Source of the DNA: Escherichia coli phage vB_EcoM_Shy
Length of the DNA stretch: 64,000 nucleotides
Sequence record: MT833282.1
Reading direction: 5' to 3' (one strand)
The position numbers and the translations under genes were made by a program. A model generated the notes under the pieces. The model saw only the letters and a list, made by a program, of their open reading frames with translations, made no database searches and was not told the origin of the DNA. Below, in pieces: positions 25,919 through 32,250 of this stretch. The first letter of the stretch is position 1. Each line of letters opens with the position of its first letter.

Positions 25919-26773
25919 ATGTTTGAAAAGATTGATAGTGTTTATTACAAAACACTTGATGAACGAACTGTAACACAGTTTAAAGATAAGTTTATCTACA
26001 CAAGTATCTTGAAAGCAATCACCGATGAGTTACAAACATTAGAGGATGTTTGCTGGCAGATGCACACAGAGAGAAATATTAGGACGTCAGTAGGCCAACA
26101 ACTTGATAATATTGGCTCACTGATTAAAGTTCCTAGACCTTTAGGTGCTGATGATGAAACATATAGAGCTATGCTTTATATCCAAATCTTCCTAAGACGC
26201 TCTGACACTACTCCAACATTCTTGCAAAAAGCAATTATGACACTGTATGGTGCAACTTTCTCTCAGATTTTTGAGCATATTACTCCTAAGACTGGTGGTA
26301 TCGTTATCCGTATCAACACTAGGAAAAGCGTTCTAGATGCTGCATATACACTGTCAAAGATTTCTGCAACAACTACTGGCTCCGCTGTTATCTTAAGAGA
26401 TGTTACTTTAAAGGGAACTGCTTGGACACCTGTAGAGGTTGCTGATTCATCACTTGCTATTGTTGATGATAAAGAGAACTGGTTTGTAACTGATGCTAAC
26501 AGAGGTCTTGTCACAAATAACACTGGTGGCTCTCTGGAGTCCAACCTAGTAGGGAGCCTTGCAGATGCTGGTGTTATTGATGGTTACTTTAAGGTTGACA
26601 GAACAGCAAACTCACAGAGCGATGATTATATGACTGTAGATAGGTCTAATAATAGCGGCTATTTCATCGTTGGTAAAGAAGCTATTGCAGGTGGTGCATA
26701 CGGAATCATGGCTGAGGTTGCACAAATTGTCAAAGGCAGAAAAGATAAATCACAACAAGAAGGAAATTCTTAA
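25919..26773 (+). CDS. baseplate protein (gpI-position)
   Basis: 284-aa ORF. Confidence 0.5.
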
Positions 26774-27075
26774 TGGCAGTTTTAAATTGGTCTACAAATG
26801 AAGTGGATACTGATGGTAATCAGTTAAAAGTTTTACCACCACCGGAAATTCAAGAGACAGGTCTTTTAAAGGGTGAGCCTATGGGTAGACAGTGGTTCAA
26901 CTATATTATCAACTACCTGCTGAATAAAGTAAACGGCACTGTCGGTGAAGTTCGCTCATATGCAACTGAGCAACCAGATTTAGTGGCTAATGGCTGGAAT
27001 CTGATTAAGTCTGAGACAGGGACTGCATCAACAAGTACAAGAAACCTTTACACATATGAATATGTAGGAGCTTAA
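26773..27075 (+). CDS. hypothetical protein upstream of tail fibres
   Basis: 100-aa ORF. Confidence 0.5.
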
Positions 27076-27077
27076 TA

Positions 27078-28253
27078 ATGGCAGTAGGTGAAATTCAAAT
27101 TAGTGCCTTGCCACAAGCGGCCTTACCAATTGATTTGAGTGATATCTTCCACCTTAAGCAAGGTGTTGAGGATAAAAGATGTACGCTTGAACAGTTGTTA
27201 GCACCTCACGCATCTTTGAGGAATAACCCTCATGGTGTAACTAAATCGCAAGTTGGCCTTGATAATGTTATTAACTCTCTTCAATTAGTTGCAGCTAATA
27301 ACTTGTCAGATATTGTAAATGTTGCTGAGGCAAGAGCAAATCTACAAATTATGTCGTCAGAGGAAGTGAATAACTTAATCCAGCAACATATCGACGACAA
27401 AAGTAACCCACACAATACAACGAAAGCACAGGTAGGGTTAAGTAATGTTCAGAACTGGACAACATCCAACCTGTACAATGAAGATGCTGATAAATATGCT
27501 ACCGCGAGAGCAGTGAATAATCTATACAAAGCTATCCAAGCATCATATCCAGTGGGGACTATTCATCTGTCTGTTAACTCTGCTAACCCATCCACTTACT
27601 TGCTTTGTGGAGGTACTTGGGAGTTGGTTTCTAAAGGTAGGGCGCTTGTTGGTTATGATACAGAAGCTAGACCTGTTGGTTCAACGTTCGGTTCTCAGAC
27701 TGTAGCATTAACAAATAATAATTTACCAGCACACACCCACTCTATCTATTTAACAGGTGGTGGTCACACACACTCTGCAAGCGTATCTATCTCTAGTTTT
27801 GATTATGGTTCAAAAAGTACATCAACTTTTGATTACGGTACAAAAACGACTAATAGTGCTGGTGCTCACACTCACACGTTTAGCGGCACGACAAGTAATG
27901 ATGGTAACCATAACCATAGAGTACCACTGAGAGGTAATGATAGAAGTGGGGGGGATGCTATTACTGCATCTGCTTATGCTGGGGTTAATAATAATACGTA
28001 TACTGATTTAGCAGGTGCTCACACCCATAGCTTCTCAGGCACAACTGCATCATCTGGTGCTCATAGCCATACTGTTGCAATTGGTGCTCATAGCCACACT
28101 GTTAATATTGGTTCACACAGTCATACGGGTACTGTTACTGTCTCTAACTCTGAACATACACACTCAGGAACATCTGGTTCTGTTGGTGGTGGTCAAGCTT
28201 TCAGTGTTGAGCAGCCATCTTTTGTCGTATATGTATGGCAGAGAACAGCTTAA
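27078..28253 (+). CDS. tail fibre protein with C-terminal His-box (HxH) tip
   Basis: C-terminal repeats GAHTHSFSGTT / GAHSHTVAIGAHSHTVNIGSHSHTG; paralogous to C-terminus of 28300-30669. Confidence 0.75.
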   Translation: MAVGEIQISALPQAALPIDLSDIFHLKQGVEDKRCTLEQLLAPHASLRNNPHGVTKSQVGLDNVINSLQLVAANNLSDIVNVAEARANLQIMSSEEVNNLIQQHIDDKSNPHNTTKAQVGLSNVQNWTTSNLYNEDADKYATARAVNNLYKAIQASYPVGTIHLSVNSANPSTYLLCGGTWELVSKGRALVGYDTEARPVGSTFGSQTVALTNNNLPAHTHSIYLTGGGHTHSASVSISSFDYGSKSTSTFDYGTKTTNSAGAHTHTFSGTTSNDGNHNHRVPLRGNDRSGGDAITASAYAGVNNNTYTDLAGAHTHSFSGTTASSGAHSHTVAIGAHSHTVNIGSHSHTGTVTVSNSEHTHSGTSGSVGGGQAFSVEQPSFVVYVWQRTA

Positions 28254-28261
28254 TTTCTTTA

Positions 28262-28285
28262 CAGGGGCTTTGTAGCCCCTTTTAA
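28262..28285 (+). terminator. rho-independent terminator
   Basis: aggggct-ttgt-agcccct then tttt. Confidence 0.5.
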
Positions 28286-28299
28286 GAGGAAAATTTATA

Positions 28300-30669
28300 A
28301 TGGCAGATTACAAATTGAGTCAATTAAACTCAATCGACACAATTCGTTCAGAAGACCTATTGCACATCAGAGTTAAGAAAAGACCTGAAATGTTGGGTGA
28401 CGAAGACCGTAGAATGACCTATCAAGACTTCTTAGCTTCCTTCAAACTAGAAAGGTTTGTTCAGATTGCTGGGAGTACTATGGTTGGGGATTTAGGTATT
28501 GTCAAGTTACTTTACGGTGGCAAGGCTGTATTTGACCCAACAGATTCTTCTGAGATTACTATTGGGGATATTTTAAAGACTTTTAAAATTAACTCAAATG
28601 GTCTTAAACTCACTATTGCAGATGCTTCAAGGTCGGCAACTGTTTATCATACTTTGAATAAACCAAGCCCTAATGAACTTGGTATGAGAACTAATGAAGA
28701 GAATGATGCAAGATATGCAAGGCTTGCTGTCACAAATAACTTCAGCATTAGGCAAGCAATCGTAACTGATGGTGAGCAGTTAACTCTTAAGAAGGCAACC
28801 AATGCAGGTGCTTCATATATTCAAGGTAGAGATGCTAATAACCAGCAAACTTGGTATGTTGGACAGGGAAATGCAAACAGCACTAATGTTTATTTGTACA
28901 ATCATGCTACTGGTGCAATGTTAACCCTTGATGCAACAGCAGCATTTAATAAGTCACTTAGAATCACTGGACAAGTTCAACCTTCAGATTTCTCTAACTT
29001 AGATGCTAGATACTTCACTCAGACAGTTGCTAATCAGAGATTTGCACAGTTAGCTGGTAATAACACTTTTACAGGTGCTAATACATTTAGGACTATGAGT
29101 ATTATCTCAAATGCTGCTGCTATCACACTACAATGTGCATCAGCAAATGAATCCCTGTATCTACTTGCAAAAGATTATCAAGGTGGTAACTTATGGTATG
29201 TTGGTAAAGGTAGCTCAGGTGATGGTGTAACTATCTACAACTATACCACTAACACCTCTTTGGTCTTAGATGCTGCTGGAGTATCAGCAAATAAAAATGT
29301 CAGAATCACTGGTCAAGTTCAACCTTCTGATTGGGCTAATATTGACTCTAGATACATTCCAGCAGGGACTTTGAGTAACCTTGCTAAACTGAGTGATGTG
29401 AATACTTTTAGGTCTGCGCAAGTTATTAAACAGAATGGTCCAGTGTTGCAGCTAAGGAATACTATTCAGGACAGGGAGCTATATATCTCTGCTCATAATG
29501 CTGATGATGTTAGAAAGTGGTACATCGGTAACGGGGATGCTAACCCAGCAAGGCTTATTATCCACAACGACAGAACTGCAACTACGATTTATATGCAAGA
29601 CGATTTCTTGCTGAATAAAACAGTTAGAATCACTGGTCAAGTTCAACCTTCAGATTTCTCTAACTTAGATGCTAGATATTATACGCAATCTGTTGCGAAC
29701 TCTAGGTACATGCTTGCTGTATCTACTGGTTCTGGTACAGAGGTTGGTGATGGAGATGGTATTGCTTGGAATGCTAGAACTGGTTTGTATAATGTTACAG
29801 GGAAATCTGGCGGTTCAACACAACTGGTTTATCAGATGTTTATCGGTGGTGGTTCAACACCAACTGCACAGTTGAAGTTTAGCTACGGGAATGGTGGTAT
29901 TTCGTACAGGACAGCACGAGATGGGTATGGTTTTGAGAAGGCATGGGCTAAAATCTATACAGACCAAGATAAACCAACACCTTCAGATATTGGTGCATAC
30001 ACTAAAGCAGAAACTGACCAGAAGATTGCAGAAGCAATTAGTGACTCTACAGACCTGAATAAAATCTATCCAGTAGGTATTGTAACGTGGTTTAACAGTA
30101 ATGTTAACCCTAATACAGCACTTCCTGGGTTAACTTGGACGTACCTGAACAATGGTGTTGGCAGAACTATTAGAATTGCAGCAGCAAATGGTTCAGATGT
30201 TGCTACAACTGGTGGTTCAGACTCTGTAACGTTATCTGTTGGTAACTTACCTTCACACACGCATAGTTTCTCTGCTACCACTTCATCATTTGATTATGGT
30301 ACTAAGACGACAAATACGACTGGCAACCATGCTCACAATAGAGGTAACATGGAAATTTCTGGTGTGGTTGGTTGGTTCAGAAGTGATAGCAGTGCATTCT
30401 ACACTGCGAGCGGTGCGTTTCAGATGGGTAGTTCTCAGGCTTCACATGGCTTCACAGGCTCTAACTTCACTTACGGTGCTGCTGCTGATTTCCACGCGTC
30501 AAGAACTTGGACAGGTGTAACCAACACAACAGGTAACCACAGCCACACTGTTGGTATTGGTGCTCACAGCCACACAGTTAGCGGTAACACTGGTGGTACA
30601 GGTTCTGGTTCAGCATTTAGTGTTACTAACCAGTTCTACAAGTTAATGGCTTGGGTAAGGACTGCTTAA
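28300..30669 (+). CDS. long tail fibre protein with three internal repeats and His-box tip
   Basis: 789 aa; three copies of (V/L)RITGQVQPSD(F/W)(S/A)N(L/I)D(A/S)RY; C-terminal GNHSHTVGIGAHSHTV. Confidence 0.8.
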   Translation: MADYKLSQLNSIDTIRSEDLLHIRVKKRPEMLGDEDRRMTYQDFLASFKLERFVQIAGSTMVGDLGIVKLLYGGKAVFDPTDSSEITIGDILKTFKINSNGLKLTIADASRSATVYHTLNKPSPNELGMRTNEENDARYARLAVTNNFSIRQAIVTDGEQLTLKKATNAGASYIQGRDANNQQTWYVGQGNANSTNVYLYNHATGAMLTLDATAAFNKSLRITGQVQPSDFSNLDARYFTQTVANQRFAQLAGNNTFTGANTFRTMSIISNAAAITLQCASANESLYLLAKDYQGGNLWYVGKGSSGDGVTIYNYTTNTSLVLDAAGVSANKNVRITGQVQPSDWANIDSRYIPAGTLSNLAKLSDVNTFRSAQVIKQNGPVLQLRNTIQDRELYISAHNADDVRKWYIGNGDANPARLIIHNDRTATTIYMQDDFLLNKTVRITGQVQPSDFSNLDARYYTQSVANSRYMLAVSTGSGTEVGDGDGIAWNARTGLYNVTGKSGGSTQLVYQMFIGGGSTPTAQLKFSYGNGGISYRTARDGYGFEKAWAKIYTDQDKPTPSDIGAYTKAETDQKIAEAISDSTDLNKIYPVGIVTWFNSNVNPNTALPGLTWTYLNNGVGRTIRIAAANGSDVATTGGSDSVTLSVGNLPSHTHSFSATTSSFDYGTKTTNTTGNHAHNRGNMEISGVVGWFRSDSSAFYTASGAFQMGSSQASHGFTGSNFTYGAAADFHASRTWTGVTNTTGNHSHTVGIGAHSHTVSGNTGGTGSGSAFSVTNQFYKLMAWVRTA

Positions 30670-30748
30670 TCCCTTGTTGACTGATTGTTAAGATGGTGTT
30701 AATATTCTTTATGGGTATTCTCACCATCTTGGCTGATGAGGTGATTAA

Positions 30749-30946
30749 ATGCCTACAATCCTAGCAATTCTTCTAAAAAATCTAGGTAGCTTCTTCTGGA
30801 AACTCATTTTATCCCTTCTAAGTGAATACATGATTGAGAAAGTGTTCTTTAGGCTTGCAAGATACCTTGCGAGTAAAACAGACACACCTATTGATGATGA
30901 GTTCGTAGATAACTTAGAAAAAGCTTTTAAGGGGGAGAATAAATGA
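30749..30946 (+). CDS. small membrane protein (holin-like candidate)
   Basis: 65 aa, hydrophobic N-terminus, charged C-terminus. Confidence 0.4.
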   Translation: MPTILAILLKNLGSFFWKLILSLLSEYMIEKVFFRLARYLASKTDTPIDDEFVDNLEKAFKGENK

Positions 30947-31314
30947 AGTGGCTAGAGGAAGCTTTTAAAAATAATATTGGTGCAATTGTAGTTGGTATTT
31001 TTAGTGTTATTGGGATGTATACCACCATGCAAGTTTCGGATGGTAAACAAGAAGTGTCTATCACAACAAAGTTACAGCAGTTAGATAATTATTCCAAAAG
31101 TAATTATTCAGCTATTCGTGATTTACAGTCTGATATGAGGCTGCTTCAGCTAGGGATGGAGAACCAGAAAGTCCAGTTAGAGAATGTTAAGGGTGAGAAC
31201 GCAAAACTTACCAAAACTCTTGATAAATTCTCTGATAGTGTGAACAATCTGGCTCAATCAGTATCAGCCCTCCAAGCTATTACTGAGAAGAACACAAAGA
31301 ATACTGAAAAGTAA
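30943..31314 (+). CDS. membrane-anchored coiled-coil protein (spanin-like candidate)
   Basis: 123 aa, N-terminal TM helix followed by heptad-rich region. Confidence 0.45.
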   Translation: MKWLEEAFKNNIGAIVVGIFSVIGMYTTMQVSDGKQEVSITTKLQQLDNYSKSNYSAIRDLQSDMRLLQLGMENQKVQLENVKGENAKLTKTLDKFSDSVNNLAQSVSALQAITEKNTKNTEK

Positions 31315-31320
31315 AGTTTA

Positions 31321-31350
31321 AGGCTCCTTTTTACGGGAGCCTTTTTTGTT
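31321..31350. terminator. bidirectional rho-independent terminator between convergent modules
   Basis: aggctcc-tttttacg-ggagcct flanked by T-runs on both strands. Confidence 0.6.
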
Positions 31351-32250
31351 TTACTTACCGACTGATAATGGTGCTTCAATCTTTCCTGCATGTTGGTAGT
31401 TGTTAATACCACCAATAAAGTCACTTGCAGTGAGATGTTTTAAGTCACTTAAAGTGTTAAGTGGGATACCAATCTCAAAAGTAGGTGCATGAAACTCTTC
31501 ATTATTCATCAGTTCATAAACCTGCTTCATATGATTCTGATAAATCTGAGTATCTCCAAAGACACCTATCAAGTACCGTGGAGTGTATCCAGTCATCTTG
31601 CAAAGAACTTCCAGAATAAAACCGTAAGATGCAATATTAAACGGAAGTCCTAAAAAGGTGTCTACTGAACGCTGATACCATTGTAAGTCAACTTCACCCT
31701 CGTTAGTAATATAAATCTGAAACAGAACATGACAAGGTGCTAGAGCCATTGAGTTTGCTGCAATATCTGCTGCATTCCAAGCATTAACAAGCATGTAACG
31801 GTCTGTGATATCACCCTTCATCTTTGTTACTAAGGTCTCTAACTGGTCTACAACACAACCATTATGACCTTCAAAGTTTCTCCACTGAACCCCGTAGATT
31901 CTCCCACCTGCATCTTCTAACCAATCTTGTTCAGAAGAATAATTAGAGCTTAACCAGCGTTTAAAATCATCTGACCAGATAGTCCAGCGTTCTCCGTCAT
32001 TTTCACCCCAAGTACGATAACGAAGTTCACCAAGCTTATTCTCGCCATTCAGGAACCATAAAGCCTCCCCAATAACTTGCCGTGTAAACACCTGTTTAGA
32101 TGTTAAAAGCGGGAAACCAGTTCGCATATCAAAACGAAACTGAGGTGGAGCAAATGCAGAGATAACATCTCCAGTTCGTGTAGTACGCAGTTCACCAACT
32201 GATAAAACATGGTTCAGGATATTTTTATAACTTGTATCTGCTTGTGACAT
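31351..32250 (-). CDS. thyA: thymidylate synthase
   Basis: 299 aa with ThyA active-site motif APCHVLFQ. Confidence 0.85.
   Translation of the reverse strand: MSQADTSYKNILNHVLSVGELRTTRTGDVISAFAPPQFRFDMRTGFPLLTSKQVFTRQVIGEALWFLNGENKLGELRYRTWGENDGERWTIWSDDFKRWLSSNYSSEQDWLEDAGGRIYGVQWRNFEGHNGCVVDQLETLVTKMKGDITDRYMLVNAWNAADIAANSMALAPCHVLFQIYITNEGEVDLQWYQRSVDTFLGLPFNIASYGFILEVLCKMTGYTPRYLIGVFGDTQIYQNHMKQVYELMNNEEFHAPTFEIGIPLNTLSDLKHLTASDFIGGINNYQHAGKIEAPLSVGK

Follow-up and report, generated by a model that had tools for sequence, protein, structure and literature searches.

Two fibre genes of a Felix-O1-like phage and evidence for cassette exchange in the long-fibre shaft

Two fibre genes and their domains

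We analysed a 64,000-nucleotide (nt) stretch of Escherichia coli phage vB_EcoM_Shy (MT833282.1), hereafter the window, in which all coordinates count from the first letter. Two successive open reading frames (ORFs) on the plus strand, at 27078-28253 and 28300-30669, had been called tail-fibre genes in an initial annotation made from the sequence alone, and this call was borne out. Here they are termed the short fibre (STF) and long fibre (LTF) genes. Both products fall in PHROG tail-fibre families (E = 3e-139 for STF and E = 0 for LTF), and a megablast search assigned the region to Felixounavirus, the genus of the Felix-O1-like myophages, with 238 phage records matched and Escherichia phage HMD-P10 as the top match (96.6% over 94% of the query). 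The best reference for the pair is phage Bas63 (Escherichia phage JohannRWettstein), whose cryo-electron microscopy structure of 2025 assigned gp26 to a 430-Å short fibre and gp27 to a 630-Å long fibre (PMC12609058). STF aligned with Bas63 gp26 over its full length (74% identity over 391/382 amino acids [aa], E = 0), as did LTF with gp27 (69% over 789/784 aa, E = 0).

The surroundings of the pair also agree with Bas63. STF is preceded by a Baseplate_J-like gene, by a gene whose product is a baseplate protein of 284 aa, and by a 100-aa ORF; LTF is followed by genes for a 65-aa membrane protein and for a 123-aa protein that bears a holin annotation in relatives, and then by the convergent thymidylate synthase and DHFR genes. 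Gene order and neighbour sizes correspond to bas63_0023 to bas63_0031, from the baseplate J-like protein through the opposite-strand thymidylate synthase, and to five GenBank relatives, with the fibre pair directly behind the baseplate genes and ahead of both the lysis genes and thymidylate synthase, the position of the Felixounavirus pair. Fibre identity thus follows from full-length orthology and shared gene order with gp26 and gp27, together with the Pfam and PHROG assignments. In a single judgement that covers the fibre pair, its T4-type tips and the linker-mediated cassette swapping described below, we consider it very likely that the region encodes two baseplate fibres, one short and one long, of a Felix-O1-like myophage. 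In Bas63 alone have the two trimeric fibres been physically seen on the baseplate wedge proteins (PMC12609058).

The architecture is likewise shared. Both Bas63 fibres end in a T4-gp37-like collar, an HxH needle and a head, and the Bas63 long fibre has five structurally similar, beta-structured shaft domains parted by helix-turn motifs (PMC12609058). The window genes were divided accordingly as listed below. Allele numbers for LTF refer to 28 full-length long fibres, drawn from 24 related viral contigs, five GenBank loci and Bas63, and an allele is a single-linkage cluster at 90% DNA identity.

27078-28253, plus strand: STF gene, 391 aa
27078-27482, plus strand: STF N-terminal baseplate-binding region and shaft, residues 1-135; 74% identity to Bas63 gp26, role from PMC12609058
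27483-27722, plus strand: STF collar, residues 136-215; Pfam Gp10_C, matches 2XGF and the T4 gp10 C-terminal domain 2FKK
27723-27923, plus strand: STF ascending needle strand, residues 216-282; four HxH (219, 230, 264, 278), aligned to 2XGF
27924-28013, plus strand: STF head (distal tip) between the needle strands, residues 283-312; aligns with the T4 gp37 head region
28014-28253, plus strand: STF descending needle strand (residues 313-365), C-terminal tail and stop; five HxH (315, 329, 338, 347, 360)
28300-30669, plus strand: LTF gene, 789 aa
28300-28659, plus strand: LTF baseplate-binding domain and first shaft domain, residues 1-120; genus-conserved
28660-28728, plus strand: LTF linker 1, residues 121-143, KPSPNELGMRTNEENDARYARLA; left junction of cassette B2
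28729-28959, plus strand: LTF repeat 1 body (B2), residues 144-220; Pfam gp37_trimer, exchangeable cassette, 12 alleles
28960-29052, plus strand: LTF linker 2 (DNA core 1), residues 221-251, RITGQVQPSDFSNLDARYFTQTVANQRFAQLA; repeat family D1, breakpoint 28960-28980
29053-29295, plus strand: LTF repeat 2 body (B3), residues 252-332; Pfam gp37_trimer, exchangeable cassette, 16 alleles
29296-29382, plus strand: LTF linker 3 (DNA core 2), residues 333-361, VRITGQVQPSDWANIDSRYIPAGTLSNLA; family D1, breakpoints ~29300 and 29365-29375
29383-29619, plus strand: LTF repeat 3 body (B4), residues 362-440; Pfam gp37_trimer, exchangeable cassette, 18 alleles
29620-29721, plus strand: LTF linker 4 (DNA core 3), residues 441-474; family D1
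29722-29967, plus strand: LTF fifth shaft domain (B5), residues 475-556; Pfam gp37_C PF12604, related to Mu protein S, exchangeable cassette
29968-30039, plus strand: LTF linker 5, residues 557-580, KPTPSDIGAYTKAETDQKIAEAI; right junction of B5, two alleles
30040-30249, plus strand: LTF collar, residues 581-650; Gp10_C below threshold, paralogous to the STF collar, two alleles
30250-30342, plus strand: LTF ascending needle strand, residues 651-681; HxH at 653 and 677, SSFDYGTKTT motif, left junction of the head at ~30309
30343-30531, plus strand: LTF head (distal tip) cassette, residues 682-744; 17 alleles, larger than the Bas63 head
30532-30669, plus strand: LTF descending needle strand, C-terminal tail and stop; HxH at 747 and 756, right junction of the head cassette

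The LTF shaft consists of five domains with short conserved linkers of the form xQPSDxxNxDxRY between them. Its Pfam assignments are strong, PF20744 (gp37_trimer) scoring 212.3 bits in three stretches (cut-off 21.7) and PF12604 (gp37_C) 71.5 bits (cut-off 22.5). The STF collar region matched PF21939 (Gp10_C) with 68 bits (gathering cut-off 27), and LTF reached 24 bits, under the 27-bit cut-off; the LTF collar is placed in Gp10_C because it is paralogous to the STF collar and because homologues carry PF21939. Two helix-turn motifs of the form NPHxxTKxQxGLxNV, at residues 50 and 110, are present in the N-terminal part of STF.

Tips of the two fibres

The initial annotation had described the C-terminal ends of both fibres as paralogous tips with HxH motifs, resembling the metal-binding tips of T-even fibres, and both the paralogy and the resemblance hold. 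STF carries nine HxH motifs, four ascending and five descending, and LTF carries four (two and two), whereas the means over 20,000 composition-preserving shuffles were 1.4 for STF (P < 5e-5) and 0.27 for LTF (P = 1e-4). The motifs GAHSHTV and GNHSHTV that had drawn attention to the tips are present at STF residues 327-333 and LTF residues 745-751. STF residues 146-361 matched chain positions 18-229 of the crystal structure of the T4 gp37 tip, 2XGF (gp37 residues 785-1026), with E = 9e-28, and the STF collar region matched the C-terminal domain of T4 gp10 with E = 6e-6. LTF residues 647-768 matched 2XGF with E = 1.4e-5 as a single sequence, and a family profile of the LTF tip built from 70 sequences matched it with E = 3.5e-12. 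Within the window, the two C-terminal regions aligned by BLASTP with E = 2e-13 and 33% identity over 228 columns (STF 136-342, LTF 563-760).

A T4-type tip is built of a collar, an out-and-back needle and a small receptor-touching head at the turn, and in T4 the three chains contribute HxH motifs that coordinate metal ions (Fe2+) along the axis of the needle. The window tips share with T4 gp37 the collar-needle-head order by alignment, HxH motifs on both needle strands and the FDYGTK and GAHxHTV motifs. Given this homology to T4 gp37, both tips may be expected to bind metal, and both fibres would form trimers; lipopolysaccharide, which is reported as the receptor for the genus, is the presumed receptor. 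The systems differ in the numbers of HxH layers (nine in STF and four in LTF versus seven in T4) and in the carrier, since the T4 tip sits on a kinked fibre of four proteins and the window tips end single-protein fibres attached to the baseplate. Compared with Bas63, STF has nine HxH motifs and a different head as against seven motifs, and LTF has four and a 63-aa head as against six and a shorter head.

The tips also vary among related phages. In LTF, 19 of the 28 aligned long fibres have a six-HxH tip with a shorter head, and the head type of the window (four HxH, 63 aa) is rare, with 12 matching GenBank records, for most of which the isolation host is E. coli O157:H7, E. fergusonii or Shigella flexneri. 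At 94% identity or more, the LTF head is common only to KEP2, JN01, pEP20 and HMD-P10, and the C-terminal tail behind it is conserved. In STF the head is the most variable segment (nine alleles among 30 phages), and the gene carries a 27-nt tandem His-box repeat at 28044-28112; STF evolves more by lineages of entire tips, the head being variable. Beyond the genus, genomes of Providencia, Erwinia, Photorhabdus, Serratia and other Enterobacterales encode tail-fibre proteins that carry the tip module (43-50% identity), probably within prophages.

At the DNA level, similarity between the STF and LTF genes is restricted to the His-box and FDYGTK stretches (37-43 nt at 81-86%). The His boxes at 28062-28104 and 30538-30580 are 86% identical, and the longest exact run common to the two genes is 12 nt. 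Because the exact shared DNA is so short, exchange between STF and LTF is unlikely, and the STF-LTF tip pair was rejected as a current recombination substrate.

Repeats, linkers and cassettes of the long-fibre shaft

The LTF had been reported to hold three direct repeats of roughly 110 aa with nearly identical DNA cores around 28957, 29300 and 29621. A self-comparison of LTF by BLASTP returned the self-match alone, and the repeats were therefore excised and compared pairwise. They span residues 131-244, 245-358 and 359-466 (114, 114 and 108 aa) and share 36-42% identity, with E values of 6e-19 to 1e-29. The DNA cores lie at 28948-29033, 29290-29375 and 29614-29699, with spacings of 342 and 324 nt. 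Thus the repeats and the positions of their cores stood, and the description of the cores as nearly identical was mildly overstated: with the longest exact run in brackets, identity is 86% over 86 nt for cores 1 and 3 (41 nt), 82% over 65 nt for cores 2 and 3 (26 nt), and 81% over 54 nt for cores 1 and 2 (14 nt). No similarity of B1 or B5 to the repeat profile was detected by hmmsearch or hhalign, and so, as judged from sequence, homologous repeats account for only three of the five shaft domains.

The shaft domains matched proteins of other phages. A 30-sequence profile of the repeat body matched T7 gp17 residues 368-436 with E = 6e-8, the segment known as the pyramid domain, which precedes the T7 fibre tip, and LTF residues 477-576 matched the Mu tail fibre protein S structure 8JU3 with E = 7e-22. 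The pyramid is present in a single copy before the T7 tip (4A0T, 7BOZ), whereas LTF has three tandem copies in its shaft; the order along LTF is thus three T7-pyramid-like copies, a Mu-S-like domain (8JU3, 5YVQ) and a T4-type tip. Rod-type repeats such as those of T4 gp34 (5NXH) were also looked for, and no gp34 chain was retrieved by phmmer or with the repeat profile at E ≤ 1; the gp34 resemblance reported for Bas63 is structural (PMC12609058).

Repeats within one gene raise the possibility that the fibres change mainly by recombination within the genome, either by unequal crossing-over among the repeats or by gene conversion between the STF and LTF tips. The exact matches of core 3 with cores 1 and 2 speak for it, and so do the tips of some phages, in which STF and LTF reach up to 53% protein identity. 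In addition, of the 24 residues identical between linkers 2 and 4 (28960-29043 versus 29626-29709), 18 are encoded by the same codon, when 11 would be expected from codon usage, which hints at concerted evolution of these cores by gene conversion, or at a recent common origin. Against it, repeat copy number did not vary, all 28 long fibres having exactly three repeats, and the Bas63 paper likewise mentions no variation of the number of domains (PMC12609058). Long-fibre lengths do range from 777 to 849 aa, but these differences stem from alternative B5 and head cassettes, and in the window the two tips share only the short exact run and the 33% protein identity given above. We therefore regard recombination mainly within the genome as improbable.

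A comparison of fibre loci among related phages, which had been suggested as a check, revealed stepwise mosaicism in five close relatives. HMD-P10 is 100% identical to the window over 28980-29640 and only ~45% identical over 28740-28975, the repeat 1 body. In pEP20, E9 and NBEco004, identity stays at 97-100% across the bodies of repeats 1 and 2, falls to 45-60% from ~29365 to 29972, a block that comprises the repeat 3 body and B5, and then returns to at least 95%. In JN01 every shaft cassette differs and the cores stand out as islands at 85-97%. Within the shaft, identity switches at 28730, 28960-28980, 29300, 29365-29375 and 29972, and around the head at ~30309, after SSFDYGTKTT, and at ~30527, in the His box. 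Individual junctions are sharp: near 28730, at linker 1, where identity transitions accumulate, HMD-P10 and JN01 drop from identical to ~45%, and from ~29972, at linker 5, pEP20, JN01, E9 and NBEco004 are back at 95% identity or more. In phage E9, linker 4 forms a conserved island (85%) amid a divergent block.

The same partition was seen across the 28 long fibres. B2, B3, B4, B5 and the head have 12, 16, 18, 18 and 17 alleles, respectively, one form of B5 being ~60 aa longer, and one to three alleles each were counted for the N-terminus, for linkers 1, 2, 3 and 5, for the collar and for the descending needle. Transitions between high and low identity were located with a two-state hidden Markov model in 351 usable pairs. 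Linkers and needle strands together, 29% of the length, hold 77% of the transitions, with linker 3 as the densest site in LTF; B2, B4, B5 and the head each contain just 2-4%, and residues 1-120, which have two alleles, contain none. When GenBank was searched cassette by cassette, each window cassette returned a different set of phages. The full combination of the window occurs in no GenBank record, HMD-P10 lacking only the B2 allele. Bas63 itself carries other alleles than the window at B2, B3, B5 and the head.

A simpler explanation of such diversity would be point mutation in place, under relaxed constraint or positive selection, with the cores kept by structural constraint only. Relaxed constraint is the first option offered in the Bas63 paper (PMC12609058), and since the linkers are conserved in protein as well, structural constraint certainly exists. 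Against it, pairs of phages change from 100% to ~45% DNA identity across a linker, and the cassette that differs is not the same from pair to pair. The alleles are moreover reshuffled, the B2/B3 pairs A/A, A/C, D/C and D/D all being present, so that a four-gamete-type test fails, and, as described next, a cassette with 94% DNA identity stands at different repeat positions. Mutation in place is thus very improbable as the source of the pattern.

Cassettes seem not to be bound to their position in the shaft. Protein identity between alleles at the same position has a median of 35-42%, and across positions it is 33%; two allele clusters mix repeat positions. In the clearest case, B2 of contig L006 and B4 of phage BPS17W1 (contig L017) share 94.9% protein identity and 94.1% DNA identity over 290 nt. 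By sequence comparison, this relocated cassette lies at:

L006:6088-6487: relocated cassette at position 2
L017:6780-7180: relocated cassette at position 4

In GenBank records, Alf5, pinkbiff, Tribble and LinBro, phages of E. coli, have the cassette adjoining linker 1, at position 2 (99.8% identity), and it lies ~670 nt further downstream, at position 4, in BPS17W1, BPS15S6, RPN213, NJ12, D1-2 and about ten more Salmonella phages (93.5-95%). Similarly, the B4 cassettes of 13 other phages cluster with B2 of Bas63 (protein identity up to 73%). Because one cassette occupies positions 2 and 4 in different isolates, out-of-register exchange via the repeated linker is suggested.

Since the cores are repeated within the gene and some of the loci are metagenome-derived contigs, the mosaic and the change of position could have arisen as assembly artefacts, from short reads mis-joined at the cores. 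The patterns recur, however, in independent isolate genomes (HMD-P10, pEP20, JN01, E9, NBEco004, Alf5, pinkbiff, Tribble, LinBro, BPS17W1 and ~15 more), and the exact repeats are at most 41 nt, which we expect to be below the usual read length. The relation of the Bas63 B2 to the B4 of other phages, at just 73% protein identity, also reflects divergence and not mis-joining. We give an assembly artefact hardly any weight.

Taken together, the sharp breakpoints at cores and His boxes, the reassorted alleles and the relocated cassette support the proposal of the initial annotation that the locus is a substrate for recombination. Judged from these comparisons, the fibres recombine between phages and between repeat positions, and not by change of copy number. 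In the mechanism that we propose, the conserved linkers, like the FDYGTK and His-box strands, keep ~90-100% DNA identity among phages and would act as crossover sites, so that domain bodies and the tip head could be swapped whole as cassettes between co-infecting relatives and occasionally be moved between repeat positions. We further lean, by a small measure, towards the view that the LTF shaft domains form one shared pool of cassettes, with the QVQPSD...RY linker as a portable crossover site between phages as well as between positions.

Several points weigh against this set of conclusions. Breakpoints necessarily fall at the edges of conserved segments, and their position alone is no proof of crossover inside the linkers. 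Linker 4 has 16 alleles, its DNA being far less conserved than that of the other linkers. As for the tips, an AlphaFold2 monomer of the LTF tip (residues 560-789, from a 70-sequence alignment) had a predicted local distance difference test score of 64, below 50 in the head, and a predicted template modelling score of 0.31, and a Foldseek search of the PDB with this model gave no match at E < 0.5, the top entry, T4 gp10, not being significant. Finally, T4 gp37 requires gp38 and gp57A to fold its tip (PMC3157838), and no gp38-, gp57A- or Tfa-like chaperone gene was detected by Pfam or PHROG following the fibres (30749-31314, plus strand); without an adjacent chaperone gene, assembly of these fibres may differ from that of T4.

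Fibre anatomy and the principle of motif-mediated swapping are already known for phages. In T-even phages, swapping of fibres and adhesins through conserved motifs is established (Tetart 1996 and 1998, as cited in PMC3157838), and the window resembles the T-even case in its hypervariable segments between short conserved motifs and in the chimeric fibres among natural isolates (Trojet et al. 2011, PMC3157838). The cases differ in that the LTF appears to swap whole shaft domains of a single-protein fibre, beyond the adhesin tip, and in that its repeated linker would let a cassette shift position; motif exchange was shown experimentally in T-even phages, whereas the Felixounavirus case is read from sequences. 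The shuffling of shaft-domain cassettes, including their change of position, may be new. No published description of a shared cassette pool in Felixounavirus was found in the literature searched; general comparative papers on the genus mention fibre diversity only in passing, the word recombination does not occur in the Bas63 paper (PMC12609058), and a preprint on gene essentiality in Bas63 holds nothing specific on gp26 or gp27 (PMC11482910).

The Bas63 paper calls the variability of shaft domains 2-5 "not expected" and offers relaxed constraint, variable host recognition or escape from defence as reasons (PMC12609058). On the reading that we favour, the variability of the LTF shaft would come from recombination rather than drift, and a shared cassette pool, if true, would explain what that paper left open. 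It would also imply host-driven diversifying selection on the shaft domains and not just on the tip, with sideways glycan binding or evasion of a defence as examples. Swaps of cassettes may affect host range, as had been suggested for the repeats, by analogy and from the host labels in the records. Adaptive mutations in the long fibre of a Salmonella Felixounavirus were reported at residues 497 and 534 (PMC6669636), which, provided that the numbering corresponds, fall in B5 and give a weak hint in this direction. A second weak hint comes from the isolation hosts listed above for phages with the head type of the window, mainly O157:H7, E. fergusonii and Shigella. Felix-O1-like phages are widely used in typing, biocontrol and therapy of Salmonella and E. 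coli, and their fibres set host range; the map of cassettes and junctions (linkers 1-5, FDYGTK and His box) thus offers ready splice points for the engineering of chimeric fibres.

Neighbouring genes and related records

The 100-aa ORF upstream of STF (26773-27075, plus strand) belongs to phrog_4141, has no Pfam hit and lies between the baseplate genes and STF in all relatives examined. It is the counterpart of Bas63 gp25 and a candidate fibre adaptor or baseplate accessory protein. The start contexts of the 100-aa ORF, STF and LTF (26757-26782, 27062-27087 and 28284-28309) are near-identical, with ...TAATGGCAG... in each, and all three proteins begin with MA(V/D). At all three starts a TAA abuts the ATG. 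For the 100-aa ORF and STF this TAA doubles as the stop codon of the preceding gene, which suggests translational coupling at these two starts.

Downstream of LTF, the 65-aa membrane protein belongs to phrog_402, and the 123-aa protein is called holin in HMD-P10 and JN01. A scan of 26600-31400 for promoters and terminators gave no excess of sites. The sole convincing terminator was a hairpin at 31320-31343, which follows the holin-annotated gene and lies between the convergent genes.

In some related phages the LTF gene is split into two ORFs. In Escherichia phage EC6 (L009:7395-7440) the split is due to a 1-nt insertion in a T-run, and in Salmonella phage Si3 (L020:7060-7105) to a 2-nt deletion inside linker 4; the fibres of REP5-7 and ST11 are likewise annotated as split. 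These could be sequencing errors or real frameshifts. Finally, DNA resembling a Felixounavirus long fibre (76% identity) was found at 84848-85903 of GU169904.1, a record of Staphylococcus phage SA1 that is probably chimeric or mislabelled.

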